From contig JAZKAT010000034.1 of the NCBI GenBank assembly GCA_040389045.1, forward strand, positions 5,323 through 69,322: 64,000 nt of DNA. Direction: 5' to 3'. The position numbers and the translations under genes were made by a program. This DNA is from Pseudomonadota bacterium (GTDB lineage Bacteria > Pseudomonadota > Gammaproteobacteria > DSM-16500). Each line of letters opens with the position of its first letter. Positions within the stretch are counted from its first letter, which is position 1. A model generated the notes under the pieces. That model saw only the letters and a program-made list of their open reading frames with translations, ran no database searches and was not told the DNA's origin. Of the stretch, positions 5,120 through 58,501 are shown piece after piece.

Positions 5120-5785
5120 ATGAGTGATGAATTAGCCCGCAAATTAGGTTATACATTTAACGATGGCAATAGCCTGAAAATTGCGTTAACGCATCGCAGC
5201 AGTCATGAAAAAAATAATGAACGAATGGAATTTCTCGGTGATTCTATCGTTAATTTTATTATTGCCGAAGCGCTCTTTGAACAATTTCCCGAAGCCCAGG
5301 AAGGCGAGTTAAGTCGCTGGCGCGCCACCCTGATTAACCGTGACACTTTGGCTGATATCGCGCGTGACTTTGATGTAGGGCGTTTTTTGTATTTAGGGCC
5401 CGGCGAATTAAAAAGCGGCGGCAGTGAGCGTAAATCTATTTTATCTTGCGCCATGGAAGCGATTATTGGCGCGATTTATCTGGATAGTGATTTTATCACG
5501 GTAAAAGAATGTGTCTTGTCATGGTATGAACCTTTACTGAATTCATTATCCAGTTCAGGCAGTCACAAAGATCCAAAAACCGTGTTACAGGAATATTTAC
5601 AAGGTTCACGCAAACCGTTGCCGGTTTATCTGGTAGACACCATTGAAGGGGAAGCACACCAGCAAGTATTTATTGTGAGCTGCCAAATTAGCGGACTCGA
5701 AGAAAAATCAATTGGACGCGGCACCAGCCGTAGGCGTGCGGAACAAAATGCCGCCGAAAATATGTTAAGGATTATTCGAAAATGA
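5120..5785 (+). CDS. rnc: ribonuclease III
   Basis: NERMEFLGDSIVNFIIAEALF (RNase III signature) plus a C-terminal dsRBD (KDPKTVLQEYLQ...GRGTSRRRAEQNAA). ATG 5120 is chosen over the upstream TTG at 5102. Confidence 0.95.
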   Translation: MSDELARKLGYTFNDGNSLKIALTHRSSHEKNNERMEFLGDSIVNFIIAEALFEQFPEAQEGELSRWRATLINRDTLADIARDFDVGRFLYLGPGELKSGGSERKSILSCAMEAIIGAIYLDSDFITVKECVLSWYEPLLNSLSSSGSHKDPKTVLQEYLQGSRKPLPVYLVDTIEGEAHQQVFIVSCQISGLEEKSIGRGTSRRRAEQNAAENMLRIIRK

Positions 5786-10935: not shown

Positions 10936-11853
10936 ATGGATAAAATCGACGTCACGGAAGCGGTCATTGAAGTAAAAAATTTCCTGCATAATTTGCAAAA
11001 TCGTATTTGTTCGATTTTGGAAATGGAAGATGGGCAGGGTAAATTTATTGAAGATATGTGGGCGCATGGTGAAGGTGGTGGTGGACGAACGCGGGCGTTG
11101 GCGCAAGGCAAGGTTATCGAAAAAGCCGGTGTGAATTTTTCTCATGTGCATGGTTTGGAACTACCCCCAGCAGCGACTGCCAAGCGGCCTGATTTGCAGG
11201 GACGGCGTTTTCAAGCGCTAGGGGTCTCGGCCATCATTCACCCGTTAAACCCTTACGCACCGACTTCTCATTTGAATGTGCGCTTCCTGGTAGCTGAGAA
11301 GCCTGATGCTGAGCCGGTGTGGTGGTTTGGCGGCGGTTTTGATTTGACGCCTTTTTATGGGTTTACCGAGGACTGTGAACTTTGGCACGCTAATGCCAAA
11401 AAAGCCTGTGAACCTTTCGGTAAAGACATTTATCCTCGTTATAAAAAATGGTGCGATGAATATTTTTATTTAAAACACCGAGCTGAGCCGCGGGGGATTG
11501 GTGGTTTATTTTTTGATGATTTAAATGAGGGGAAGTTTGAGCATTGTTTTGCCTTCATGAGAAATGTTGGCGATTATTTTATTGAAGCCTACCAGCCGAT
11601 TTTAGCACGACGCAAAGATATTCCTTACACGCAGCGGGAACGGGATTTCCAGTGTTACCGACGGGGCCGGTATGTGGAGTTTAATCTATTGTATGATAGA
11701 GGGACTTTATTTGGGATTCAGTCGGGAGGCCGGACAGAATCAATCTTATTATCGTTGCCGCCGGTGGTGATGTGGGAATATCAGAATGCAGTTGAACCGG
11801 GAAGCCCTGAAGCAGAGTTATACGATAAGTTTTTAATTGCCAAGGATTGGTAG
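10936..11853 (+). CDS. hemF: oxygen-dependent coproporphyrinogen III oxidase
   Basis: [58 protein letters not shown]. Confidence 0.93.
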
Positions 11854-11905
11854 ATTCTTTTCTCGCCTCTTACCTAAAACTTTATAAAGCGCCAACTGAA
11901 CGCTC

Positions 11906-11964
11906 TTCACCTCTCCCCTTGTGGGAGAGGTCGGCGCCGAAGGCGACGGGTGAGGGGTGGGGTG
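11906..11964. repeat. GC-rich REP-like hairpin element between convergent hemF and the carrier-protein gene
   Basis: TTCACCTCTCCCCTTGTGGGAGAGGTCGGCGCCGAAGGCGACGGGTGAGGGG. It contains CCTCTCCC/GGGAGAGG and GTCGGCGCC/GGCGACGGG stems and differs from the local AT-rich context. Confidence 0.6.
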
Positions 11965-11967
11965 TAT

Positions 11968-12201
11968 TCACGATATTTTATCTTCAACCAGCTTCAAAAT
12001 CGAATTAACCGAATCAAAATCCTTCACATGAAAAGTATGCGCGTAAAAATCAATATGGTATTTTTCCTCTAGCCAGGTCGCCAGCTCAATTACTTTAACT
12101 GAACTTAACCGCCCACTCACCACTAGCGAATCATCGTCGCCAAGCTGCTGATTATCCGAGCCTAACAGTGATAAAACACGTTCACGTATTTCATTCTTCA
12201 T
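11968..12201 (-). CDS. DltC-like aminoacyl/acyl carrier protein
   Basis: 77 aa. SGRLSSVKVIELATWLE aligns with DltC GLLDSFGTVELLLAIE, so the phosphopantetheine Ser is conserved. Only 3 nt lie downstream of the MBOAT stop. Confidence 0.65.
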   Translation of the reverse strand: MKNEIRERVLSLLGSDNQQLGDDDSLVVSGRLSSVKVIELATWLEEKYHIDFYAHTFHVKDFDSVNSILKLVEDKIS

Positions 12202-12204
12202 AAC

Positions 12205-13656
12205 TTACCACTTAAATCCAAACAAACTGCCAAAAAATTTAAAATTATTCATGATACTGATATCCTGATAGGGAGAATTAAACAAACACAACACACAATA
12301 AAACAATAATACAGAAATTGAAGACATTAAACTAGTTACAGCTTTATCTTGCGCTTTATTTTCCTCCAAGCTCCGCAACTGAGAAAAACCAATACTGATT
12401 CCCAAAATCACAGCATATAATATATAAGGTAGAAATCCTCGATAAGCTCTGCCCAAACCAAGAGACATCATCACCGGCGTCAACAACAAAAAATGGAAAA
12501 TAATATTTCCAAAAGTCGCCGCGCTCAATGTCGTGCAGAACATTCTTAACTTTGGCATTTTCTTAAAAAATTTAAAGAACGTTGGATAAAAGAAAAATTC
12601 AACCAGTAATTCTTTAAAATAATAATTATAACGGTTCCAATATTCGGCAATAGTACGCGCCTGCAAGGGCTTATAAGTATTACGCAATATCCGAAAACCA
12701 CACATTCGACAACAAGCTACAAAAAAATGCCCCGTCACTGTCAACTCTAACATCATTCGAAAAAATCTATCAATCAAACAAGTCCAAGCCTTCCAGATAG
12801 GATAATGCAACCCTTGATTATAATCGTGTAATGCCTCCATTAATTTAGGCATTTTAAAACCGTCTTCGAATTGATAATACAAATGTAAAAGACAATATAA
12901 AATAAAAGCCCACCAAATCAGCTTGATGCCTTTTAATTGCGTCACCGCAAATTCTTCACTGTTTTTTGCTTCCACTTGCTGCAAATAAATCGAACCCTTC
13001 CCATAAGGCAGCGCGGTAAAACCCCATACCGGCAAATAACGCGCATAATCCAATAAAAAATTGCGCTTATTCGTGAAACGGCTTTCATGCAGCGTGTAAC
13101 CGACAAACCAAAAATAATGATTCATTACCGCAATATAGGACCATAATAAAAACCCTTGCATTTTGGTTAACGGAGCCAAGGCAGCAACCAAAATTAAAGA
13201 GAAAATTAAACAAATATAAAGCGTAATAGGATAACGGAATATTCGGAAGCGGTTATAATAGGTAACTAAAAAAATTAGCGTTTCAGAAATTACTATCATC
13301 AATGCCAAGTCTATATATTTAATCACTGCAGTACCAAAATAATTGTCCGAATTATTTCTGAAAATTTCAAATAAATAATTCGCCCTAAATAATACCCAGT
13401 CAGGTTGTTCTTTAATTAGAAGGTTATTTAGCAACAAACAGAACATACCACAGAATAAAATTATGTAACGATACTTCGGTAAAAATGTTATAACCGCCAC
13501 CGTGGCAATGGCGACATTCCGCCAGAGCACCGGAAAAATATTCGTATTAGCCATGAAAAATGCAAAGATCAACACCAAAATAATTTTAAAAAATGGCCGC
13601 TGCGCAAAATAAATTATGGTGGGGTTCTGATCGATGGGAAATATATTTTTTAGCAC
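12205..13656 (-). CDS. MBOAT-family (DltB/AlgI-like) polytopic membrane acyltransferase
   Basis: 483 aa and highly hydrophobic. MCGFRILRNTYKPLQARTIAEYWNRYNYYF...ATFGNIIFHF aligns with AlgI [30 protein letters not shown]...LLGGLWHGA. The predicted GTG start overlaps the adenylase stop. Confidence 0.72.
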   Translation of the reverse strand: MLKNIFPIDQNPTIIYFAQRPFFKIILVLIFAFFMANTNIFPVLWRNVAIATVAVITFLPKYRYIILFCGMFCLLLNNLLIKEQPDWVLFRANYLFEIFRNNSDNYFGTAVIKYIDLALMIVISETLIFLVTYYNRFRIFRYPITLYICLIFSLILVAALAPLTKMQGFLLWSYIAVMNHYFWFVGYTLHESRFTNKRNFLLDYARYLPVWGFTALPYGKGSIYLQQVEAKNSEEFAVTQLKGIKLIWWAFILYCLLHLYYQFEDGFKMPKLMEALHDYNQGLHYPIWKAWTCLIDRFFRMMLELTVTGHFFVACCRMCGFRILRNTYKPLQARTIAEYWNRYNYYFKELLVEFFFYPTFFKFFKKMPKLRMFCTTLSAATFGNIIFHFLLLTPVMMSLGLGRAYRGFLPYILYAVILGISIGFSQLRSLEENKAQDKAVTSLMSSISVLLFYCVLCLFNSPYQDISIMNNFKFFGSLFGFKW

Positions 13657-15236
13657 GCGGACTCTCCCGTGCTGCTCTCAATACTTTTTACCCACTCAGC
13701 CAAAGCGGTCCTATCCAATTTACCGTTTGTATTATAAATTAAAGCATCTCGATAAAGCATACGCGCGGGCAACATATACTTCGGCAAACGTTCCGCCAAT
13801 TGCGCGACTAGCGCACTGAAATCCAATTTGCTGAAATTGGTAACCACCACAATTTCTGGGTTATCGCCCACCGTAACAATACATGCAGCGACTTCATTGC
13901 ACTCGGTGATGGCCCGGAAATAAAATTCAATTTCCTCCAATTCCACGCGGTTCCCTAAAATTTTAGCTTGGCTATCCAGCCTGTTTATATAATGAAAAAC
14001 GGCATGACTATCTTGATAACAATAATCACCGGTCAAAAACCAGCCCTGCATACCCCAATCTGGATGAGTTAATTTTTTAAATTTTTGCGCTGACAAATTA
14101 TTATCGTGCCAGTAACCTTCAGCTACTTGTGGGCCTGCAATGACTAATTGCCCTTTTTGTCCTGGCGGTAAAAATTTTTCGTTAACATCAATGAGAGCAG
14201 CAATCATTTTTGCAAAGGGTTTACCGATTGCTACCTGGTCGCGATAAAAATTCTCATTAGGCTCATAAATTTGTCCCAGGCAATCTATAGTCACTTCGGT
14301 AGGGCCATATAAATTTTCCAGTTGACTAGCCGGGGCCGCCACGGCCCACGCTTGTGCTTGTGCCAAAGTCAAAGCTTCACCGGTGAATAAACTATATTTT
14401 AACGTGGGAAAACCATTGGGCCTTAATATTTTTAATCTTGCCATATTATTTATAACACTAGGTACCGACAACCACACGCTAAGTTGATTTTCATAAATGA
14501 ATTTTGCTGGGGCCATCTGGGTATCGTCAGGCACCACATACAAGGCAGCGCCAGCGCCAAAAGCCAGACCCATATCAAATACCGAAACATCAAATGATAA
14601 AGTGGAAAATTGCGACACTCGGTCCTTAGCTGTCAATGGATAGCGAGCACTCACAGCCTTGATGAAACTACCCAAATTTCCAAATGAAATAGGTACACCT
14701 TTAGGCTCGCCTGACGATCCAGAGGTAAATATAATGTAGGCTAAATCCGTTGCTTCAACCTTGCTTGCAGCTAGGGATATCGTGTCTTCAGCCTGGATAT
14801 CTTCTAATGTTATTTTTTTAAATGGTGTTGCCGAGGAAGTTAAAACAAAATTTTCCACCATGGGTTTTCGTAAGGCATCCACAATATAGCCATCTAACTG
14901 GGCGCTTTCGATAATTTTTTTCAAACGTGATAAGGGATAGCGCGGATTTAATGGCACATACGCGCAACCAAGCCAATGCGCGGCGAGCACACCCAAATAC
15001 GCTTCAAGACTTTTCGATGCCAGGATACCTAACCGCTGAATATTATTTTTCTTCAATACGCTGGCAAGCTGGCGGGTTTTTTTTATCAAGTCGCCGTAAC
15101 TTATCGTCTTATTATCTATGACTAGAGCGGATAAATTCGGGTGCGACAAACCGTGCGCACTGACCAGTTGAGCAAGACTAATCGCATCTTGGGTGAGAGG
15201 GGATAATACTGGATCAGCATCGGTATGATTCGCCAT
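13650..15236 (-). CDS. stand-alone adenylation enzyme (DltA-like / NRPS A-domain, AMP-binding family)
   Basis: All A-domain cores were read directly: LAYIIFTSGSSGEPKGV (A3), FDVSV (A4), NLYGPTE (A5), GQLVIAGPQVAEGYW (A6), FLTGDY (A7), LGNRVELEEIE (A8), LPKYMLP (A9), NGKLDR (A10). Confidence 0.88.
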   Translation of the reverse strand: MANHTDADPVLSPLTQDAISLAQLVSAHGLSHPNLSALVIDNKTISYGDLIKKTRQLASVLKKNNIQRLGILASKSLEAYLGVLAAHWLGCAYVPLNPRYPLSRLKKIIESAQLDGYIVDALRKPMVENFVLTSSATPFKKITLEDIQAEDTISLAASKVEATDLAYIIFTSGSSGEPKGVPISFGNLGSFIKAVSARYPLTAKDRVSQFSTLSFDVSVFDMGLAFGAGAALYVVPDDTQMAPAKFIYENQLSVWLSVPSVINNMARLKILRPNGFPTLKYSLFTGEALTLAQAQAWAVAAPASQLENLYGPTEVTIDCLGQIYEPNENFYRDQVAIGKPFAKMIAALIDVNEKFLPPGQKGQLVIAGPQVAEGYWHDNNLSAQKFKKLTHPDWGMQGWFLTGDYCYQDSHAVFHYINRLDSQAKILGNRVELEEIEFYFRAITECNEVAACIVTVGDNPEIVVVTNFSKLDFSALVAQLAERLPKYMLPARMLYRDALIYNTNGKLDRTALAEWVKSIESSTGESAC

Positions 15237-15311: not shown

Positions 15312-16169
15312 ATGTTTTTTATCACTTTGATAATGGGTGTTCTCGCCGGGCTGATTGCCATCACGGTTATCAGCCGTTACACCAAAAATCAAACTATAAT
15401 CAGCGCGCTCACTGTGTCCATCATCGTAGCTACTATGAGTCTTGCTAAAGTTTATGTGGTCACCTACGTCCATGCCGCCACATATGAATATTATTTAAAA
15501 AAAGATGATCCAGTTTGTCTATTAATAGCCACTACCTATCCAGACAGGTTTAAAAGCTATATAAAGAATATAAAACAAATCATCCGTAAAAATGAAGGAA
15601 AAGATACGCAACTTTTTTCTAAAATCGAATTATTAAATACTATTTTTAACCTCACCGCTTCAAAAGCATCTAATGATAGTATTTATGCCTATTATCAAAG
15701 CGAACTGGCCCTCTACAAAGCCTTATATCTTATCGATCCAGATTTGGTATTATTCATGGAATATACATCAAAATTCAAGAAAAAGCTGAACCCCGGACTG
15801 GCGGTCTTGCTAAGTGGAGAACTACGGGTAAATGATATTACCGAGAAAAAAGAAGCTGTCATTTTATCTGCAATTAAAACACCCCAGCCCCCATTAACCA
15901 CTCAAGAGAAAGAGCACGCTACTGAATTATTACATAACATACTGGTGGGTCTTGCCCATCAATTCGGCGAGAAAACAGTAGTAGCAATGACAACAAATCC
16001 CACTGATTCGCCGATTGACAAAGCTAGCGCGGCATTATTTATCATCACTTTTTACCAAAATATACTGACCTTAGGTAAAGATGACGTGGGCACTATTTTC
16101 AGATACTTCTATAACGGTCAATCCGCCAGTGAAAGTCTGGATGACACGACTGCCAATAATAGAACTTAG
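15312..16169 (+). CDS. hypothetical membrane protein (two N-terminal TM helices), family unknown
   Basis: ORF 15225..16169. The ATG at 15312 (MFFITLIMGVLAGLIAITVI) avoids overlap with the divergent adenylase gene. No motif recognised. Confidence 0.5.
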   Translation: MFFITLIMGVLAGLIAITVISRYTKNQTIISALTVSIIVATMSLAKVYVVTYVHAATYEYYLKKDDPVCLLIATTYPDRFKSYIKNIKQIIRKNEGKDTQLFSKIELLNTIFNLTASKASNDSIYAYYQSELALYKALYLIDPDLVLFMEYTSKFKKKLNPGLAVLLSGELRVNDITEKKEAVILSAIKTPQPPLTTQEKEHATELLHNILVGLAHQFGEKTVVAMTTNPTDSPIDKASAALFIITFYQNILTLGKDDVGTIFRYFYNGQSASESLDDTTANNRT

Positions 16170-19293: not shown

Positions 19294-19818
19294 ATGGACA
19301 AGTTTATTGGCGATTACAGAATACTCGTGGTGGATGATGTTAAAGATATCCATACTATCTTTAACCGGATTTTGACTTATCAACCACAAATTAAAGCTGG
19401 GCAGTCAACTCCGATCCTGCAAACTCTACCGACTTTTAAAATTGATGACGCGTTCCAGGGCGAAGACGCATTAAATCTGGTAAAACAAGCATTAGCGGAC
19501 AATAAACCTTATGCCTTAGCATTTGTCGACATTCGCATGCCACCCGGCTGGGATGGCATAAAAACCATTCAGCAAATCTGGGATGTAGACAAAGACATCC
19601 AGATAGTCATTTGTACGGGGGGTTCGGATTATTCATGGGAAGAAACCGTAGTAAAACTCGATAACATTGAAAATTTTCTCATCTTGAAAAAACCCTTTGA
19701 TGCCGTAACTGTGCGGCAAATAGCCTGTGCTCTGACCACCAAATGGCGGCTCACTCAACAAGCGCGTCTGTATACGGAAAAGCTCGAGAAACTAGTGGCT
19801 GAGATAAAACCCTCTTAA
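19294..19818 (+). CDS. stand-alone response-regulator receiver (REC) protein
   Basis: ILVVDD, the phospho-acceptor context LAFVDIRMPPGWDG, VICTGG (Thr) and LKKPF (Lys). It is about 70% identical to the N-terminus of the next gene. Confidence 0.85.
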   Translation: MDKFIGDYRILVVDDVKDIHTIFNRILTYQPQIKAGQSTPILQTLPTFKIDDAFQGEDALNLVKQALADNKPYALAFVDIRMPPGWDGIKTIQQIWDVDKDIQIVICTGGSDYSWEETVVKLDNIENFLILKKPFDAVTVRQIACALTTKWRLTQQARLYTEKLEKLVAEIKPS

Positions 19819-19936: not shown

Positions 19937-21766
19937 ATGGATAAACAATCCGGGGAATTCCGTATATTGATAGTGGATGACAGCCCGGATATCCATACTG
20001 TTTTCAGGCAAATTCTCAGCTATCAAACCCAAGTGGAACACGAAGGCGCCGCTATTTTAGCGGAACTGCCTACATTCGCGATCAATTATGCGTTTCAAGG
20101 CGAAGAAGCGGTGGAACTGGTAGAACAAGCCCTGGCGGAGGGCGCGCCATACGCACTCGCTTTTGTTGATATACGCATGCCACCCGGTTGGGACGGCATG
20201 AAAACCATACAACAAATCTGGGAACTCGACAAAGATATTCAAATGGTAATTTGCACGGGTGGCTCAGATTATTCATGGGAAGATACTATCATCAACCTGG
20301 GTGGGGCATTTGATAATTTTCTTATTTTAAAAAAACCTTTCGATTCCATGACGGTGCGCCAAATCGCCTGCGCGCTAACCAGCAAATGGCAACTCGCGCG
20401 CGTCGCGCGTAAACATACAGAAAACCTGGAAAAACAAGTTGCGGAACGCACCGCGCAATTGCAATTACAAGCGGCGCAAGATCCATTGACCAAATTACCG
20501 AACCGAACTTCGTTTATCGAACATCTTTATAAACTTATACACACTCCTATGCAACCAACATTTAGCGTATTCTTTTTTGATCTGGATAGGTTTAAATTAA
20601 TTAATGATAGTTTGACTCATGCTATAGGCGATCAATTGCTAAAACTGGTTGCTGAACGATTAAACCTGGTGGTGGGCTTACATGAAAAAATTATCGCGCG
20701 CTTTGGTGGCGATGAATTTGCGATTGCGGTAAACAATATTAAAAATCCTGAGGAAGCCACCCATATCGCGGAAAACTTTTTGAATGCGCTAGCACAACCA
20801 TTTTATATTGGCCAACGTGAGTTATTGATTACCTCAAGCCTGGGCATTAGTTTATATCCGCAGGATGGTGAAGACCCTGAATCCTTATGCCGTAACGCTG
20901 ATACCGCCATGTATAAAGCAAAAGAGCGTGGCCCCAATAATTTTCAATTCTTTGAATTCCGCTTGAATCAAAATACGCTGGAAAGATTGGAATTGGAAAA
21001 TCAATTATTCCGCGCCATCAAAAACCATGAATTTATTTTGCATTATCAACCCGAGTTCAATTTGCAAACCGGCAAAATCGAGGGTGTGGAAGCATTAATA
21101 CGCTGGCAACATCCGGAACGCGGCTTGATTGCACCGTTAGAATTTATTCCCGTAGCGGAAGAGAGCGGGCAAATTTTGCAGATTGGTGAATGGGTGTTAC
21201 GTAAAGCCTGCAAACAAAACAAATTATGGCAGGATAGCGGCTTACCAAAATTTCGTATTGCCGTTAATATTGCCAGACACCAGATCGAACAACACGAAGA
21301 ATTAGTTGCCATCGTGCAAAATTCTTTGGAAGAATCCGGCCTGGCCCCGCAATTTTTGGAAATTGAATTAAGTGAAAATATTATTATTCAGAGCAGTGAA
21401 ATAATTGAGACCGTCGGCGCCTTGAAAAATCTTGGCTTATCAATAGCGCTTGATGATTTCGGTATCGGCTATTCTAATTTAAGCTACTTAAAAAAATTAC
21501 CCATCGATAGACTCAAAATCGATAGAGTTTTTACTGATAACATTGATTCAGATGAAGATGATGAAGCTATCGTCCGCGCCATACTGGCGGTGGCGAACAG
21601 TCTTGATATAGGCGTCATTGCCGAAGGCATTGAAACCCGTGGCCAATTAAATTTTTTAAAAAAAGAAGGTTGCCACGAAGGGCAGGGGTTTTACTTTTGC
21701 AAACCTTTACCGGGCCGTGATTTTGAAGAATTTTTGAAGAAATATGAACCGGGTTCGATTAAATGA
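19937..21766 (+). CDS. REC-GGDEF-EAL c-di-GMP turnover response regulator
   Basis: The REC domain is as above. The GGDEF domain has RFGGDEFAI. The EAL domain has EALIRW, EIELSE, LDDFGIGYS, LKIDR, AEGIET and GQGF. No RxxD I-site lies 5 residues before GGDEF. Confidence 0.92.
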   Translation: MDKQSGEFRILIVDDSPDIHTVFRQILSYQTQVEHEGAAILAELPTFAINYAFQGEEAVELVEQALAEGAPYALAFVDIRMPPGWDGMKTIQQIWELDKDIQMVICTGGSDYSWEDTIINLGGAFDNFLILKKPFDSMTVRQIACALTSKWQLARVARKHTENLEKQVAERTAQLQLQAAQDPLTKLPNRTSFIEHLYKLIHTPMQPTFSVFFFDLDRFKLINDSLTHAIGDQLLKLVAERLNLVVGLHEKIIARFGGDEFAIAVNNIKNPEEATHIAENFLNALAQPFYIGQRELLITSSLGISLYPQDGEDPESLCRNADTAMYKAKERGPNNFQFFEFRLNQNTLERLELENQLFRAIKNHEFILHYQPEFNLQTGKIEGVEALIRWQHPERGLIAPLEFIPVAEESGQILQIGEWVLRKACKQNKLWQDSGLPKFRIAVNIARHQIEQHEELVAIVQNSLEESGLAPQFLEIELSENIIIQSSEIIETVGALKNLGLSIALDDFGIGYSNLSYLKKLPIDRLKIDRVFTDNIDSDEDDEAIVRAILAVANSLDIGVIAEGIETRGQLNFLKKEGCHEGQGFYFCKPLPGRDFEEFLKKYEPGSIK

Positions 21767-38353: not shown

Positions 38354-40126
38354 ATGTCGAACACACGCTTTGACTCTGCTTTAAATAAAATCAATTCATT
38401 CCATAATATTCGATTCTCTGCTGAAATTGCTCCCGGCTTCTGTGGCATGTGGAGCAACATTAATTTTTACCAGGTAGAAGGGGTAACGTTTACTATCGAA
38501 CGCCAAAACCCACGCACTTTGGTGGAAACTACCACTTTAAAAGTAGCAATTTCAACATTGAAAGATCCTAAGGAATTATTTAAATCGGAGGCGAGAGAAC
38601 AAAAACTAATAGAAGAAGGAGAAGATAACGAATCGAATAGAGCAATAGATATAAAAACACCTGATCAAGACATTCTTGAGAATTACGCCCAACAGATCGA
38701 ATTAAAAAAACGAGATATGTTTATCAGCATGCAAAATCTCGTTTCCAGTTATGTGTTAACTCGTTTTAATTTATCTTATCTGGCATACAATTCCGCAGCT
38801 CAAAAAATATCATTAAAAGGCGAGTGTGATTTATACAATTTCGTTTTCGAAAATTATCCGGCGAATGCGAATTACTTTACCATGCCCGCGGTGAAACGCT
38901 TAATTGGCCAAATGGTGTTGGCGGTGGATGATTTAGAAGGTTTATTGCACCGCGATATTAAATTGGAAAATTTCATCGTGTTTTGTTATGACAAAAATAA
39001 ATACGATCTTATTTTCCAATTAGGCGACCACAATGATATCAAAAATAACTTTCAGCGAATCACAACATTTGCCGGCACCCCAGACCATATAGCACCTGAA
39101 TTAAAAGTTTGTATTGAGCATAATGATTATATAGCTTATAAAAAGTTAAATAAGCATGCCATTGATTGCTATGCCTTAGGTTGCGCATTGGAACAGATAT
39201 TAGTTAAAGTGTTTTATTTTAAGGAAAGTATAGACTATGAAACAACAACGCAAACCCAAATAAATGAGTATTTAAGGGCGCACGGCGGCCTTGAAATCCG
39301 TAAACTACTTGCGCTGATAGCAGGCCTGCTTGATAAAAACCCCACCAAGCGATATACGCTACAAGAGGTAAAAAATCAGGCTTTTTTTGGGGCGGATGAA
39401 GTGTCCAGGCAAGCTTTTTTTAACACCTTGATAGCCGAAATAGAAAATTATTCTTTGAAAATTGATGGTTACCTGCAATCCCCGTATTACAAAACCAAAC
39501 TTGATAATTATTATTTACTCTTAGACATCCATACCAAATGTGTTCTTACCATGGGCAAGGTGATATCTGAAAAAATAACAGCAAGCGCCAAAGTAGTTCA
39601 ACTGGATAAAGAATCAATCCACTATCAGACGCGTCGATTAGAGTTTCTTACTAATGAATTGAAACATTTTATGAATATGTTACAGCAGATTATTGAAGAA
39701 CGTTCTGCCAATGAGGATTATATCGAGCTTAAAAAAGTTGCCGTCGAGGAATTACAAAAGGTTGAACAACAAACAGAACAATTAAGAATTACCAAACTAT
39801 TATATATTACTTCGAGCACACTGGCGCAATTTCCAACTACAATAGGTATTCTTTACAGAATATTTTATAAACACGACGAGATTAACGTTTTCAGGCAGTT
39901 TGAAACTGAATTGAAAACAAAAGCGAGCAGGGGGGATCACTACACTAATTTAATTAACGATATCAGCCAATTTCTCGGTGAAGAAAGCGATTTACCTGAA
40001 GGTTCCATTAAAGCAAAATATCATAACGAATTAACCAAAATGCTAGGTCAATCGATTTATACTATAAAAGAAACTGTAGTTAATGTGAATATTCCGAACG
40101 GACATGTAGTGAAGGCGGTAGCTTAG
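38354..40126 (+). CDS. eukaryotic-like (Hanks-type) Ser/Thr protein kinase with a long helical C-terminal extension; effector-like
   Basis: Catalytic loop LHRDIKLENF, activation segment GDHN...GTPDHIAPE, subdomain IX DCYALGCALEQIL, subdomain XI NPTKRYTLQEV. AGGAAG RBS. Confidence 0.85.
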   Translation: MSNTRFDSALNKINSFHNIRFSAEIAPGFCGMWSNINFYQVEGVTFTIERQNPRTLVETTTLKVAISTLKDPKELFKSEAREQKLIEEGEDNESNRAIDIKTPDQDILENYAQQIELKKRDMFISMQNLVSSYVLTRFNLSYLAYNSAAQKISLKGECDLYNFVFENYPANANYFTMPAVKRLIGQMVLAVDDLEGLLHRDIKLENFIVFCYDKNKYDLIFQLGDHNDIKNNFQRITTFAGTPDHIAPELKVCIEHNDYIAYKKLNKHAIDCYALGCALEQILVKVFYFKESIDYETTTQTQINEYLRAHGGLEIRKLLALIAGLLDKNPTKRYTLQEVKNQAFFGADEVSRQAFFNTLIAEIENYSLKIDGYLQSPYYKTKLDNYYLLLDIHTKCVLTMGKVISEKITASAKVVQLDKESIHYQTRRLEFLTNELKHFMNMLQQIIEERSANEDYIELKKVAVEELQKVEQQTEQLRITKLLYITSSTLAQFPTTIGILYRIFYKHDEINVFRQFETELKTKASRGDHYTNLINDISQFLGEESDLPEGSIKAKYHNELTKMLGQSIYTIKETVVNVNIPNGHVVKAVA

Positions 40127-53662: not shown

Positions 53663-56600
53663 ATGGCAGGTCAAGTCGGCAGTCGCCGCCAGGAAGTAAT
53701 TAACGAAATACTCACACATGTTAAAAATCGTGTTCCCGAAAAACAGTTTAAAATTATTGAAGTGTATGCTCAGCGTTATTACGCATCCAGCGCGCTCGCC
53801 GATTTAGGCGAACATTCACTGGAAGATTTATGCGGCGCATTTTTATCGCATTGGAATTATATCTATCAACGCGCGCCGGGCGAATCCAAGGTTCGGGTAT
53901 TTAATCCCACGATTGAAAATGATGGCTGGCAATCCACGCACACCATCATTGAAATTTCGCATGATGATATTCCATTCCTGGTTGATTCAACGCGTATGGA
54001 AATTAATAAGCATGATTTGCAAATTCATTTTATTATTCACTTTGGTGGCTTAAAAGTAAAACGCGATGCTGAAAATCGTATCATCGATGTATTACCCCCC
54101 GGTGCTACGGATCCCAATGAACGCTCTGAAGCACCTATTTACATTGAAATCGATAGACAAACCGATCCTGTCGCCATGGAAACATTATGCAGCGGCATTC
54201 AACATTCTTTAGCTGACGTGCGTGTGGCGGTTGCCGACTGGCGCAAAATCATGGAACGCGTAGAAGAATCCCTGCTTGAGCTTGAGCAGAACCCACCGCC
54301 ACTCGATCCTGCGGAAATCGCCGAATCGAAAGATTTTTTACGCTGGCTAATCAATAATAATTTTACTTTCCTGGGTTCGCGTGATTATAAATTAATAGGC
54401 AATGAAACCAACCGCGCGCTGCAAATGATCCCGGGGACAGGCCTTGGTGTATTGCGCGATGAATCGTCGAGCACGGTTTCCCGACGTTATACGGAATTGC
54501 CGCCCCAGGCGCGCAAACTGGCGCTGTCAAAAAATATTTTAATTATCGCCAAAACCAATACTCGCTCCACGGTACACCGCGAAGCTTACACCGATTATAT
54601 CGGGGTGAAACGTTTCAATGATAAAGGCGAAATCATCGGTGAACGTCGCTTCATAGGTCTTTACACGTCAACCGCGTATCATTCAAGTCCGCGCTATATT
54701 CCCTTTTTACGACTCAAAGTCGCGAAAATCATGCAGGAATTACATTTTCCACCCGACAGTCATAATGGCAAAGAAGCCATGCATATTTTGGAAACCTTGC
54801 CGCGGGATGACTTGTTTCAAGCAACTCAGGATGAACTCGTCAAATTAACCATGGGCATTTTACATTTGCAGGAACGCAAACGGGTGCGTTTATTTATCCG
54901 CAAAGATTCCTATGGTCGTTATTTTTCCTGCCTGATCTTTGTGCCACGCGAAATTTTTAATACTGAACTCACGCTGGCAATGCAAGAAGTGTTGATGGAA
55001 TCACTGGAAGGTATTGAATGTACTTTTACCACTTATTTTTCTGACTCCGTGCTGGCGCGTTTACATTTCTTATTGCGGGTAAATCCCCGTTCTAATGTGG
55101 AATATGATGTACCGATTATTGAACAGAAATTAATTGACGTGGCACGCTCCTGGACCGATGAATTAAAAACCCATTTAGTGATTCAATTTGGTGAAGCAGA
55201 TGGTTTGCGCTATTACGCCAAATACGCCAAAGCTTTCCCGATCAGTTACACGGAATATTACCGACCCCAAACCGCGTTAAACGACATCACCCAAATGGAA
55301 GTGTTATCCAAAGAAAATCCTTTGGGCATGGTCTTTTACAAGCGCATCGATAAAACTCCTGAAACGTTACGTTTCAAATTATTTCACGCCGAGCATCCGG
55401 TCGCGCTCTCTGATGTATTGCCAACACTTGAAAACATGGGTTTGCGCGTCATCGGCGAACGCCCGCACGAAATTATTTTTAAAGATGGCAAAATCATCTG
55501 GATTAATGATTTTGATGTAGTCTATGTGCGTGACAAGGAAATTCCCGTCGAAAATGTCCGGGAAATTTTTCAAGAAGCTTTTGCAAAAATCTGGTTTCGT
55601 TTTGCGGAAGATGATGGTTTTAATCGGCTGGTACTGGAAGCGCAATTGACTTGGCGCGAAGTAGCGGTGTTACGCGCTTATACCAAATATTTACGCCAGA
55701 CGGGTTTTACTTTCAGCCAAAATTATGTCGAAAAAGCGCTGATTAACAATCCCGATATCACTAAAAACCTGATTAACTTATTTAAACTACGCTTCACTCC
55801 AAACAATCATCAGCAACATCCGGACACCACGCCTATCGTTTCAGAGATTGAAAAAGCGCTGGAAGATGTGGCCAGCCTTGATGAAGACCGGATACTACGC
55901 CGCATTTTGGAAGTGATTCTAGCCACTATGCGCACCAATTATTTTCAAACTGAAATTGAGGATGAAGATACTTACAAACCTTATATCTCATTTAAACTAG
56001 ATCCTTCCGCCATTTCTGACTTGCCCTTGCCACGACCCATGTATGAAATCTTTGTGTATTCGCCACGGGTGGAAGGCGTGCATCTGCGCGCTGGCAAAGT
56101 CGCGCGCGGCGGCATACGCTGGTCAGACCGCCGCGAAGATTTCCGCACCGAAGTATTGGGATTAATGAAAGCCCAGCAAGTGAAAAATTCAGTGATTGTC
56201 CCGGTAGGCGCCAAAGGTGGCTTCTTCCCAAAACAATTACCCAGCGAAGCCGACCGTGATGAGCGCATGAAAGAAGTTATTTACTGTTATTCAACTTTCA
56301 TTCGCGGCTTGCTCGATCTTACCGACAACATTAAAGACAACAAAGTCGTGCCACCGGTTAATGTAGTGCGTTATGACGAAGATGACACTTATCTGGTGGT
56401 AGCCGCCGACAAGGGCACCGCAACTTTCTCAGACATAGCCAATGGCATTTCCAAAGATTATGATTTTTGGTTAGATGACGCCTTCGCCTCTGGCGGTTCC
56501 GTAGGGTATGACCATAAAAGAATGGGTATTACCGCGCGCGGTACCTGGGAATCGGTAAAACGGCACTTCCGCGAATTTAATATTGATCCTACCCGTGATG

Positions 56601-58501
56601 ATTTTACCGTGGTGGGAATTGGTGATCTGGCTGGCGATGTGTTCGGCAATGGCATGTTGCAATCAGAACACATTAAATTAATTGGCGCTTTTAATCATGC
56701 GCATATTTTTCTGGACCCGGACCCCGATCCAAAAATCAGTTTCGAAGAACGTCAGCGCATGTTTAATTTACCACGCTCTTCGTGGACCGATTACAACCCG
56801 GATTTACTTTCCAAAGGTGGCGGCATCTATAGTCGCGCCGCAAAATCGATAAAACTTTCCGCGGAAATCAAGCAAGCCCTGAACTTAAAAAAAGACAACA
56901 TGGCGCCAAATGATTTGATCCGGGAAATGCTAAAAGCACCGGTGGACTTAATTTTTAACGGCGGTATCGGCACCTTCGTGAAATCCAGTATTGAAACCAA
57001 TACGGATGCTGGCGATCGTACTAACGATAATATCAGAATTGACGGCAATGAATTGACAACGCGGGTAGTAGGCGAGGGTGGTAACCTTGGCTTTACTCAA
57101 TTAGCACGCATTGAATATTCTTTAAATGGCGGCATTATCTATACCGACTTCATTGATAACTCTGCGGGCGTAGATTGTTCCGACCATGAAGTTAATATTA
57201 AAATCCTGCTGAACAAATTGATTGCCGACGGTGAAATGACCCTCACCCAACGCAATAAGCTGCTGGAAAAAATGACGGATGAAGTTGCCGAACTCGTGTT
57301 GCGCGACAACTATGAACAAACGCAAATGCTTAGCCTGGAAGCCTCCGTGGGTCAGGAAACCATGGATTTATTCAAGCGCTATATGGTAGAGCTGGAAAAG
57401 AATGGCCGGCTGCAGCGCAAGCTTGAATCCCTGCCCGATGAAAAAAATCTGTTGGAGCGTATGTCCAACAACAAAGGGTTAACGCGTCCTGAAATCGCCA
57501 TCTTACTGGCTTATTGTAAAATGTATTTAAAACAAGACATTCTTGCCTCCGATGTGCCGGAAGACCCTTATTTTACCAAATTCCTGAAACTTGCTTTCCC
57601 GAAACCCTTACGTAAAAAATACTTTGAACAAATGAAAGACCACCGCTTACGCCGTGAAATTATCGCCACCCATCTTGGGAAATATGTCACCGACCACATG
57701 GGAATTAATTTTGTGGAACGCCTGCAACGGGAAACTGGCGCATCAGTGGCTTTCATCATGCGCGCCTTTGTGATTGCCGAAAATATTTATGGTTTAAATG
57801 AGCTCTGGGCACAGATTGAAGCCCTGGATTATCAAGTACCGACCGCCGTCCAACAAAAAATGATGTTGCAAATGTATTATTTAATCCGGCGCACGACGCG
57901 CTGGTTTTTACGTAATCGCAAACCTGAAATTGACATCCAGGAAACCATTAATAATTTTTCCAATCCAGTTCAGGAATTGATGAAACTCATACCCAGCATA
58001 CTGGCTGAGCCTGATCAAGAACGTATGCATGCTGAAGTTGAAAGTTTCGTCGAAGAAGGTGTACCGCCTGAATTCGCCTTGCAAATGGCTGCCAGCCAAG
58101 CTTTATTTACTTCCCTGGACATTGTTGAAGCCGCGCGTAAATACGATTTTAGAGTTGCTGAAATGGCGCAGGTTTATTATAAACTTGGCAGTGTGCTTGA
58201 ACTTGACTGGTTACGTTTACAATTAACTTCGCACCCTATGGAAAATCAATGGGATGAATTGGCGCGCGCCAGTTATCGCGATGACTTGGATAGTGTGCAA
58301 CGCAAATTGTCCATTAATGTTTTGAAAAAACGCCGCAACAACTCCGTAGATGAATGTGTAGTGGGATGGCTTGAAGAAAACCAGCAATTGATCGAGCGCT
58401 GGCATAACCTGCTTGCGGATATCAAATCGAGTACCAGCGTAGGCATGGTAACGTTTTCAGTAGTCTTGCGGGAATTATTTGATTTTGCGCAAGCGGGCTA
58501 A
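53663..58501 (+). CDS. gdhB: large (~180 kDa) NAD-specific glutamate dehydrogenase
   Basis: 1612 aa. The central catalytic region reads HLRAGKVARGGIRWSDRREDFRTEVLGLMKAQQVKNSVIVPVGAKGGF...VVAADKGTATFSD...GGSVGYDHK, characteristic of the Bac_GDH family. Confidence 0.92.
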   Translation: MAGQVGSRRQEVINEILTHVKNRVPEKQFKIIEVYAQRYYASSALADLGEHSLEDLCGAFLSHWNYIYQRAPGESKVRVFNPTIENDGWQSTHTIIEISHDDIPFLVDSTRMEINKHDLQIHFIIHFGGLKVKRDAENRIIDVLPPGATDPNERSEAPIYIEIDRQTDPVAMETLCSGIQHSLADVRVAVADWRKIMERVEESLLELEQNPPPLDPAEIAESKDFLRWLINNNFTFLGSRDYKLIGNETNRALQMIPGTGLGVLRDESSSTVSRRYTELPPQARKLALSKNILIIAKTNTRSTVHREAYTDYIGVKRFNDKGEIIGERRFIGLYTSTAYHSSPRYIPFLRLKVAKIMQELHFPPDSHNGKEAMHILETLPRDDLFQATQDELVKLTMGILHLQERKRVRLFIRKDSYGRYFSCLIFVPREIFNTELTLAMQEVLMESLEGIECTFTTYFSDSVLARLHFLLRVNPRSNVEYDVPIIEQKLIDVARSWTDELKTHLVIQFGEADGLRYYAKYAKAFPISYTEYYRPQTALNDITQMEVLSKENPLGMVFYKRIDKTPETLRFKLFHAEHPVALSDVLPTLENMGLRVIGERPHEIIFKDGKIIWINDFDVVYVRDKEIPVENVREIFQEAFAKIWFRFAEDDGFNRLVLEAQLTWREVAVLRAYTKYLRQTGFTFSQNYVEKALINNPDITKNLINLFKLRFTPNNHQQHPDTTPIVSEIEKALEDVASLDEDRILRRILEVILATMRTNYFQTEIEDEDTYKPYISFKLDPSAISDLPLPRPMYEIFVYSPRVEGVHLRAGKVARGGIRWSDRREDFRTEVLGLMKAQQVKNSVIVPVGAKGGFFPKQLPSEADRDERMKEVIYCYSTFIRGLLDLTDNIKDNKVVPPVNVVRYDEDDTYLVVAADKGTATFSDIANGISKDYDFWLDDAFASGGSVGYDHKRMGITARGTWESVKRHFREFNIDPTRDDFTVVGIGDLAGDVFGNGMLQSEHIKLIGAFNHAHIFLDPDPDPKISFEERQRMFNLPRSSWTDYNPDLLSKGGGIYSRAAKSIKLSAEIKQALNLKKDNMAPNDLIREMLKAPVDLIFNGGIGTFVKSSIETNTDAGDRTNDNIRIDGNELTTRVVGEGGNLGFTQLARIEYSLNGGIIYTDFIDNSAGVDCSDHEVNIKILLNKLIADGEMTLTQRNKLLEKMTDEVAELVLRDNYEQTQMLSLEASVGQETMDLFKRYMVELEKNGRLQRKLESLPDEKNLLERMSNNKGLTRPEIAILLAYCKMYLKQDILASDVPEDPYFTKFLKLAFPKPLRKKYFEQMKDHRLRREIIATHLGKYVTDHMGINFVERLQRETGASVAFIMRAFVIAENIYGLNELWAQIEALDYQVPTAVQQKMMLQMYYLIRRTTRWFLRNRKPEIDIQETINNFSNPVQELMKLIPSILAEPDQERMHAEVESFVEEGVPPEFALQMAASQALFTSLDIVEAARKYDFRVAEMAQVYYKLGSVLELDWLRLQLTSHPMENQWDELARASYRDDLDSVQRKLSINVLKKRRNNSVDECVVGWLEENQQLIERWHNLLADIKSSTSVGMVTFSVVLRELFDFAQAG

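Follow-up and report, generated by a model that had tools for sequence, protein, structure and literature searches.

The Dlt pathway is a validated anti-virulence target, the recently solved mechanism of which needs both DltX and DltD. To our knowledge, carrier-dependent transmembrane aminoacylation is known essentially from this pathway alone. The mechanistically characterised bacterial MBOATs all work together with an SGNH transferase and a tyrosine acyl shuttle of the form FxYxxF, which is located either on the microprotein DltX or in two extra C-terminal helices of the MBOAT itself (PMC12148441). In DltB, the active residues are the invariant His336 and the conserved His289, and the carrier DltC docks on helix HC and forms salt bridges to K312 and R317 (PMC11035591). 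His336 belongs to the transmembrane helix that comes after HC, and His289 lies at the tip of HC, a position held in MBOATs by asparagine, aspartate or histidine. Amongst diderms, Dickeya, Pectobacterium and Photorhabdus carry dlt loci (dltBAC together with dltD) whose genes have been reported to be homologous to dlt of Gram-positive bacteria, and the Dickeya locus contributes to polymyxin resistance (PMC3544676). Here, we analyse a three-gene operon on the minus strand of a 64,000 nucleotide (nt) stretch of gammaproteobacterial DNA (positions 5,323 to 69,322 of contig JAZKAT010000034.1, forward strand; the stretch is referred to as the window throughout). It encodes a stand-alone adenylation enzyme of the non-ribosomal peptide synthetase (NRPS) type that is predicted to load the carrier (13650..15236, 528 residues), a polytopic MBOAT-fold protein with a GTG start codon that is the predicted aminoacyl transferase (12205..13656, 483 residues) and a carrier protein with a predicted phosphopantetheine site at Ser34 (11968..12201, 77 residues). 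All three open reading frames (ORFs) are present at the coordinates and on the strand given in a preliminary description of this DNA, which had likened them to dltABC; we refer to the set of adenylase, membrane protein and carrier as the A/M/C triad. The best reading of the sequence data is that this triad represents a previously unrecognised, widespread and partner-less branch of carrier-dependent MBOAT aminoacyl transfer.

As curated profiles matched nothing, the assignment of the membrane protein rests on a fold search and on profile-profile alignment. At relaxed thresholds (E<=10, E<=0.01) no Pfam or NCBIfam model, the MBOAT models PF03062 and PF13813 included, was matched by the 483-residue protein, and a profile built from 41 family sequences found nothing amongst the PDB sequences at E<=10. 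A structure of the protein modelled with AlphaFold2 on the family alignment reached a pLDDT of 88.8 and a pTM of 0.87, and when this model was compared with the PDB using Foldseek the top 28 matches were all MBOATs, with non-MBOAT folds appearing from an E-value of 0.29. The best match was DltB (8jem/6bug; E 1.8e-6, TM-score 0.51/0.58, 14% identity), followed by HHAT, PORCN, DGAT1, ACAT, LPCAT3 and MBOAT7. The same relative emerged at the level of sequence: hhalign aligned the family with a single DltB fragment from S. thermophilus at an E-value of 6.7e-5 and with a DltB profile (17 sequences, partial and covering the C-terminal part) at 92.9% probability and an E-value of 3.7e-7, whilst a phmmer search with the DltB fragment against 9,720 ORFs from the fetched loci returned 20 matches, 19 of which lie at the positions of family genes. 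The S. thermophilus DltB sequence GIKSPINFDKPFISRDMKEFWNRWH aligns without gaps with GFRILRNTYKPLQARTIAEYWNRYN, a block that runs from G265 to H289 of DltB. The preliminary description had called the protein an MBOAT and had named the MBOAT profiles as the means by which this assignment could fail: on the profiles it did fail, whereas the fold search and the profile-profile alignment support it. The motif quoted there, GFRILRNTYKPLQARTIAEYWNRY, fared similarly, in that the ungapped alignment with GIKSPINFDKPFISRDMKEFWNRWH of DltB was reproduced, but the final histidine (H289 of DltB) is replaced by asparagine in the window protein and by tyrosine in most of the family. Judged from its predicted structure, the 483-residue protein is an MBOAT-fold protein with DltB as its nearest relative, belonging to a separate family without a model.

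The family to which the membrane protein belongs is large. It comprises 1,028 clusters (50% identity) at E<=1e-3, and 424 at E<=1e-30, among 1.84 billion representatives, and family genes occur in the genomes of at least 426 GTDB species. Practically all of these hosts are diderm; they include Acidobacteriota, Alpha-, Beta- and Gammaproteobacteria, Desulfobulbia, Nitrospirota, Methylomirabilis, Gemmatimonadota and Verrucomicrobiota; isolates with a family gene are Variovorax humicola KACC 18501, Mesorhizobium sp. KR2-14, Bradyrhizobium sp. S69 and Dechloromonas sp. Dech2017. A plasmid collection contained no family member. Named members nearly all carry the designation "hypothetical protein" and none has a Pfam domain; one member, a JGI record (P0010), is labelled "Ca2+/Na+ antiporter", a name probably given in error to a protein with many membrane-spanning segments. 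For the analysis of gene neighbourhoods we used 83 loci with flanks of ~7 kb, of which 61 form a non-redundant set flanked on either side by 3 kb or more. In 51 of these 61 loci, drawn from seven or more phyla, the family gene has both a strong adenylase and a carrier within 4 kb. The order of the window, A-M-C, is kept in 40 of the 51, with the remainder shuffled to MCA, ACM or MAC, and the flanks of the triad are otherwise unrelated between loci. Because its content is conserved while the order is shuffled and the flanks differ, there is a strong argument that the triad is a functional unit. The neighbourhood comparison that the preliminary description had called for thus shows a triad conserved across phyla with no DltD linked to it. 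Four of the apparent exceptions possess a more divergent adenylase. Three loci, L026 (Acidobacteriota, on a 6.6-Mb contig), L041 and L066, have neither an adenylase nor a carrier within 7 kb, and the sole neighbour of this kind in L026 is an NRPS-type methyltransferase; in these loci either the partners are unlinked or the membrane protein uses another donor. Two adenylase genes occur in some modules, arranged as C-A-A-M in a metagenome-assembled genome (MAG) of Desulfuromonas (L044:3170-8134) and with one adenylase to either side of M in a MAG of Bryobacteraceae (L040:1549-7583), and such modules may handle two different amino acids.

The partners on which characterised bacterial MBOATs depend are consistently absent from these neighbourhoods. 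No domain of the DltD/GDSL type or of the LpxL type (lipid A acyltransferase) was found in the flanking genes or in 30 further window genes that were scanned, in agreement with the earlier statement that neither DltD nor DltX is in view, and the operon itself leaves no room for DltX. In the 83 loci, no SGNH, LpxL-type or other conserved gene was detected beyond the triad and the methyltransferase-type genes described below, the commonest other neighbour cluster being present in at most 10 of the 83. Amongst 9,447 small ORFs located within 4.5 kb of the triads a search for DltX-like sequences yielded one spurious candidate. The shuttle motif is also missing from the membrane protein: FxYxxF was found in none of 87 members when the last 40 residues were searched (0/87), the C-terminal consensus of these members being F-x-F-L-x-x-L-F.

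The adenylase matches the Pfam AMP-binding profile (5.6e-62), and the cores A3-A10, reported earlier as readable, can indeed be followed in its translation. Against the amino-acid adenylation domain model TIGR01733 it scores 299.3 bits, just below the cut-off of 317.4, and its best solved relatives are the adenylation (A) domains of NRPSs (LgrA, 280 bits; 4oxi, which we take to be AlmE, 225 bits), with DltA (3e7w) at 167 bits. It is not a DltA orthologue, as it reaches only 222 and 238 bits with TIGR01734 and NF003417, respectively, for which the cut-offs are 560 and 476. The specificity code of the enzyme, which the preliminary description had proposed to predict, was read at the positions defined for GrsA and is DVFLLTLIDK. 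In the DltA sequences of the PDB (3e7w, 3dhv) the first nine code positions are D-L-M-T-[M/L]-C-T-V-A; the tenth (Lys517) lies beyond the retrieved fragment and is assumed when the code is written as DLMT[ML]CTVAK. The pocket of the window adenylase therefore differs from that of DltA, whilst a subgroup of the linked adenylases with the code DLFFLCLVAK carries the same residue as DltA at six of the nine confirmed positions, including the cysteine at position 301. The equivalents of both Asp235, which binds the alpha-amino group in GrsA, and the catalytic Lys517 are present in 67 of the 68 adenylases linked to family genes, the exception being a gap in the lysine column, and four divergent alphaproteobacterial adenylases keep both residues too. 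An amino acid as cargo, previously proposed from a single aspartate in the A4 motif, is thus backed by the aspartate and lysine in virtually all linked adenylases. The eight inner positions of the pocket vary widely between lineages (DIFFFALVVK, DHFFLALVDK, DFHNVGLVFK and DNFFMGCCIK, amongst others). Since the aspartate and lysine are kept while the inner pocket varies, the cargo would be an alpha-amino acid that is probably not the same in all lineages. For the window enzyme a small neutral amino acid is the probable cargo, as the lining of its pocket is bulky and hydrophobic.

In the case of the carrier, the 77-residue ORF matches the Pfam PP-binding profile with 28.9 bits (1.4e-6), above the gathering score of 20.8, and so proved to be the carrier it had been taken for. 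Its closest solved relative is DltC (1dv5, E 7.5e-4), with Ser34 falling on the phosphopantetheinyl serine of DltC; this serine is invariant in all 78 carriers linked to family genes (78/78) and is the predicted site of phosphopantetheine attachment. The protein is not a DltC equivalog, scoring 19.1 bits against the cut-off of 68 for NF003464, and its top NCBIfam match, an acyl carrier protein (ACP) of a lipid pathway, lies below cut-off. In terms of sequence, then, none of the three proteins is orthologous to DltA, DltB or DltC, with all of them far below the NCBIfam cut-offs.

A further line of evidence on the cargo comes from a partner that joins the triad sporadically. An NRPS-type methyltransferase of ~520 residues is encoded on the same strand within ~1.6 kb of the family gene in 12 of the 83 loci, mostly from Acidobacteriota, and in 10 of these 12 it lies within ~350 bp. 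Stand-alone copies are exemplified by L064:4870-6444, L025:8307-9914, L036:8701-10278 and L026:8402-10051, while in Bradyrhizobium sp. S69 methyltransferase and adenylase form one fusion protein, with the methyltransferase at the N-terminal end (L065:3716-6817, 1,033 residues). The protein consists of a fragment of AMP-binding_C from the A8 region followed by a class I S-adenosylmethionine (SAM) methyltransferase core, and its match in the PDB is 5wmm, an NRPS chain, over residues 449-801 (E 4.3e-61); we take 5wmm to be an adenylation domain that is interrupted by a backbone N-methyltransferase. Because an enzyme of this type joins the triad, an intermediate in which the aminoacyl group is bound to the carrier as a thioester with a free alpha-amine gains independent support, and the association suggests that the cargo is methylated in some lineages, most likely on the alpha-amine. 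Other genes that recur beside the triad in some of the lineages encode FkbM-type methyltransferases (6 loci), B12/radical-SAM enzymes (4 loci) and a family 4 glycosyltransferase (GT4; 4 adjacent loci), examples of such tailoring-type neighbours being L001:9824-10651, L013:8691-9476, L040:7603-9126, L023:8662-10197 and L079:10161-11435, with others besides; these FkbM, radical-SAM and GT4 proteins may be tailoring enzymes or may be related to the acceptor. In total, an NRPS-type methyltransferase, FkbM or B12/radical-SAM gene is present within 4.5 kb in 19 of the 83 loci. The window triad has no methyltransferase-type gene adjacent to it.

In order to locate candidate active-site residues we counted conservation over 323 family members. 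Tyr346 is invariant (323/323), R317, G320, R342, K348 and G383 are each found in 322 members, R371 in 321 and His388 in 316; altogether ~40 positions show a conservation of 93% or more, amongst them several arginine, lysine and glutamate residues that cluster in the MBOAT core motif. The family motif WNRYYYYFKE stands where DltB has WNRWH and reads WNRYNYYFKE in the window protein (residues 340-349), which places Tyr346 two residues past the position of H289; Asn344 sits where partner-less eukaryotic MBOATs have asparagine or aspartate. Going by its conservation and position, Tyr346 could be a built-in nucleophile or a residue that binds the thioester. His388 is part of the motif G-N-x-x-[FY]-H-F near the end of a predicted helix (368-390) that begins with R371, and the 17 residues from R371 to His388 compare with 19 from R317 to H336 in DltB. 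Its conservation and its position in this helix make His388 the likely catalytic histidine. The family can be recognised by the signature G-F-x-x-L-R-N-T-x-x-P-L...E-F-W-N-R-Y-x-Y-Y-F-K-E...G-N-x-x-F-H-F, which is usable by annotation pipelines.

From these features we reconstruct a pathway in which a carrier-dependent MBOAT-fold enzyme passes an amino acid straight onto an acceptor in the membrane or envelope, with neither a shuttle nor an SGNH protein, and we regard this reading, drawn from sequence, model and analogy, as reasonably probable. The adenylase would activate an alpha-amino acid with ATP and thioesterify it to the phosphopantetheine arm on Ser34, as family membership and conserved residues suggest. 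By analogy with DltB and DltC, the MBOAT-fold protein would then receive the loaded carrier at its cytoplasmic face, the likely site being helix 345-362, equivalent to HC of DltB, together with the basic turn K365/R369/R371 that follows it. By way of the MBOAT tunnel the aminoacyl group would reach a site formed by His388 and Tyr346, where catalysis would take place, and from there would be transferred directly onto a hydroxyl group of a membrane-embedded or periplasmic acceptor; a DltX-type shuttle or an SGNH step is left out of this scheme because such partners are consistently absent. The most economical guess at the acceptor is a lipid or lipid-linked molecule that enters through a lateral cleft, as in the partner-less eukaryotic MBOATs. 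If direct transfer is correct, MBOAT enzymes can finish aminoacyl transfer alone without partners of the DltX and DltD type, and Gram-negative bacteria would decorate a lipid or another part of the envelope with an amino acid in a way so far undescribed, which would bear on surface charge, cationic-peptide resistance and tolerance of environmental stress. The family concerned, unseen by Pfam and NCBIfam, reaches the cultivable genera Variovorax, Mesorhizobium, Bradyrhizobium and Dechloromonas as well as dominant soil Acidobacteriota.

Several observations weigh against direct transfer. The column of DltB H289 has lost its histidine, being occupied by Asn344 in the window protein and by tyrosine in 227 (70%), asparagine in 31 and phenylalanine in 23 of the 323 members. 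The canonical histidine H336 does not align cleanly either: hhalign, anchored on G400, sets it opposite a variable column (R403 in the window protein), and a pairwise alignment that places DltB G333 on family G383 brings it to a position two residues away from His388. The code DVFLLTLIDK finds no confident match, which makes the cargo a guess, and ~10 of the 61 loci are without a strong adenylase or carrier nearby. Finally, unlinked partners resembling DltD or DltX are possible elsewhere in these genomes, the inspected flanks extending over ~7 kb.

A more specific form of direct transfer, for which the sequences offer grounds that we consider tentative, is that the membrane protein is a self-sufficient, carrier-dependent MBOAT catalysing the tRNA-independent aminoacylation of a lipid or lipid-linked molecule, with Tyr346 replacing both the shuttle tyrosine and the SGNH protein. 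Should this apply, the bacterial MBOATs would gain with this family a third class, distinct in mechanism, and the family would install a previously unseen, phylogenetically broad modification of the envelope or its lipids, N-methylated in some lineages. It is rather unlikely, in our assessment, that the triad is instead a minimal NRPS-like pathway in which the MBOAT serves as an off-loading enzyme, so that the amino acid is esterified or amidated onto a lipid or alcohol on the cytoplasmic side to give a new amino lipid. The tailoring-type methyltransferase and radical-SAM genes of 19 of the 83 loci would fit such a route, as would adenylase pockets that vary between lineages as they do in secondary metabolism, the presence of partner-less lipid-acylating MBOATs (DGAT1, ACAT, LPCAT3) amongst the fold matches and the lipid-pathway ACP that is the top NCBIfam match of the carrier, albeit below cut-off. 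However, DltB, which transfers aminoacyl groups across the membrane, is both the closest fold and the sole relative found by sequence, and the conserved core contains no condensation, thioesterase or lipid-synthesis genes. This explanation overlaps strongly with direct transfer by the MBOAT, from which it differs mainly in the acceptor and in the face of the membrane.

Ranking below the amino-lipid route, and unlikely in our view, is a conventional pathway of the Dlt or dra type, in which genes elsewhere in the genome supply an SGNH transferase and a shuttle microprotein and the MBOAT hands the aminoacyl group to a partner that modifies a periplasmic polymer or lipopolysaccharide (LPS). Precedent speaks for it, since all bacterial MBOATs of which the mechanism has been studied use an SGNH protein and a tyrosine shuttle (PMC12148441) and dltD (pbpG) of Dickeya lies apart from dltBAC (PMC3544676), and an inspection covering ~7 kb of flanking sequence is compatible with it. 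Nevertheless, an SGNH or DltX-like gene was linked to the triad in none of the 83 loci, the complete absence of FxYxxF together with the loss of H289 points to an active site unlike that of shuttle-using MBOATs, and the three genes move as a unit across many phyla. A last possibility, that the membrane protein descends from an MBOAT but has lost catalysis and now works as a transporter, scaffold or sensor while the adenylase and carrier serve another enzyme, is very improbable, for whilst it matches no Pfam MBOAT model, shows a variable H336 column in the profile-profile alignment and has lost H289, the ~40 positions conserved in at least 93% of members, His388 and Tyr346 included, form a pattern typical of an active enzyme, and the gene is tied closely to its two partners by synteny and, in all probability, by translational coupling, while the loci offer no second candidate for the transferase.

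The architecture of the operon in the window is compact. The stop codon of the adenylase gene overlaps the start of the membrane-protein gene by 7 nt (GTGCTAA, 13650..13656, minus strand), and 3 nt separate the TAA of the latter from the ATG of the carrier gene (TAA-gtt-ATG, 12202..12204, minus strand), both junctions reading in the sequence as they had been described. Overlaps between the adenylase and membrane-protein genes recur in the gene calls of relatives (L001, L004, L006, L088, L089), and the 7-nt overlap in the window is compatible with translational coupling of the two genes. Relatives at 55-72% identity keep the order hemF, triad, a 284-residue orphan, a major facilitator superfamily (MFS) gene and pfkA. 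The impression that the membrane-protein gene is AT-rich was correct as to the figures (GC content 0.348 compared with 0.437 for the window), but the effect is compositional and the drop sits in codon position 1, where GC is 0.345; at codon position 3 the gene differs little from its operon partners (GC3 0.380 compared with 0.397-0.403). Because the drop falls in codon position 1 and GC3 is near that of the partners, the AT-richness is attributed to amino-acid composition. Horizontal acquisition was considered as its cause and rejected on account of the codon-position-1 effect together with the synteny in the relatives at 55-72% identity.

Between the convergent hemF and carrier genes lies a hairpin-rich spacer of ~115 nt (11856..11967, no strand assigned), for which structure prediction gives three stem-loops with a minimum free energy of -38.5 kcal/mol and a z-score of -2.3. 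It contains a perfect 8-bp inverted repeat, CCTCTCCC-ACAA-GGGGAGAGG, at 11910-11930, which occurs once in the window. The preliminary description had placed a repetitive extragenic palindrome (REP) next to hemF; the hairpin cluster is single-copy within the window, and repetitiveness was not borne out. To judge from its sequence, the spacer is a plausible bidirectional terminator that closes the operon. On the plus strand, positions 11847-12008 can also be read as a 53-residue ORF (…PLPLWERSAPKATGEGWG…). A promoter scan returned consensus-level sites only, and these were not used as evidence.

On the other side of the triad, a divergently transcribed gene (15312-16169, plus strand) encodes an orphan protein of 285 residues with two N-terminal hydrophobic helices. 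Described earlier as an unknown protein with two transmembrane segments, it starts at 15312 in the deposited protein and not at 15225, the latter being a mechanical ORF start that overlaps the start of the adenylase gene. The protein is clade-restricted, with 6 homologs among 5.8 billion proteins, is found beside the triad in close relatives only and is predicted to be all-alpha (pLDDT 69) with no significant fold match. It was considered as a hidden DltD and rejected, given its 6 homologs, the all-alpha prediction and the absence of an SGNH fold match.

That the host is a diderm, as had been stated, is confirmed by a secretin, genes for a type II secretion system or MSHA-type pilus, MltD and PgsA in the window. 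The window further encodes a eukaryotic-type Ser/Thr kinase (38354-40126, plus strand), and in relatives proteins with ankyrin repeats (Ank) and with the Ntox17 toxin domain adjoin the triad (L006:12497-15264; L089:3034-4641), with the Ank protein of L089 being inserted between hemF and the carrier gene. The kinase, Ank and Ntox17 sequences hint at a host-associated, Legionellales-like lifestyle of the clade. A stand-alone response regulator (19294-19818, plus strand) and the adjacent REC-GGDEF-EAL protein (19937-21766, plus strand) have very similar N-terminal sequences, and the regulator and the receiver domain of the larger protein look like tandem paralogues; this arrangement is kept in the relatives L088 and L090. 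A very large ORF of 1,612 residues is located at 53663-58501 (plus strand).

A search of the literature accessible to us found no description of this triad. Comparison was made with the systems that resemble it in part. The closest is DltXABCD, with which the triad shares a stand-alone A-domain ligase, an MBOAT-fold protein, a carrier of ~80 residues and the order of the genes. The order and logic of dltABC that had been recognised at the outset accordingly hold at the level of an adenylase, an MBOAT-like protein and a carrier, all of which were matched, but do not extend to orthology with DltA, DltB or DltC. Unlike DltXABCD, the triad as found across the family lacks linked DltD, DltX and FxYxxF, carries tyrosine or asparagine in place of H289 and has an adenylase pocket that is different and variable between lineages; in addition, the hosts of the family are diderm, and diderms are generally devoid of teichoic acids. 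The dlt loci of the Dickeya type are likewise a carrier-dependent aminoacylation machinery in a diderm, but they keep dltD, whereas the window family has no linked DltD, escapes the MBOAT profiles and occurs in a broad range of environmental bacteria (Acidobacteriota, Proteobacteria, Desulfobulbia, Nitrospirota and others). The dra locus of Bordetella is a comparable dlt-like locus in a Gram-negative organism.

AlmEFG of Vibrio cholerae also combines an NRPS-like adenylase with a small carrier in a Gram-negative bacterium, where it acts on an envelope lipid, attaching glycine to lipid A. AlmG is an LpxL-type acyltransferase of the cytoplasmic face and not an MBOAT; in contrast, no LpxL-type gene is present amongst the scanned window genes or recurs in related loci. 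The MBOAT-SGNH systems for polymer O-acylation (PatA/PatB, AlgI/AlgJ/AlgX, WssH and others) exhibit the MBOAT fold in diderms and move acyl groups across the inner membrane (PMC12148441). Whilst the PatA, AlgI and WssH systems use acyl-CoA, C-terminal FxYxxF helices and SGNH proteins, the window family pairs with a carrier, lacks the motif (0/87) and has no SGNH neighbour. The eukaryotic MBOATs (DGAT1, ACAT1/2, LPCAT3, MBOAT7, HHAT and PORCN) share the fold, occupying Foldseek ranks 4 to 28, and acylate a lipid or a protein in a single direct transfer that involves no SGNH protein; their donors are acyl-CoAs, their cargo is fatty-acyl and their structural match is much weaker than that of DltB. 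MprF, an aminoacyl-phosphatidylglycerol synthase (aaPGS), uses an aminoacyl-tRNA donor and a GNAT-like fold to esterify an amino acid to a membrane lipid and so alters the surface charge. Its chemistry and protein family are unrelated to those of the window module, in which there is no tRNA, but the predicted outcome of the two could coincide.

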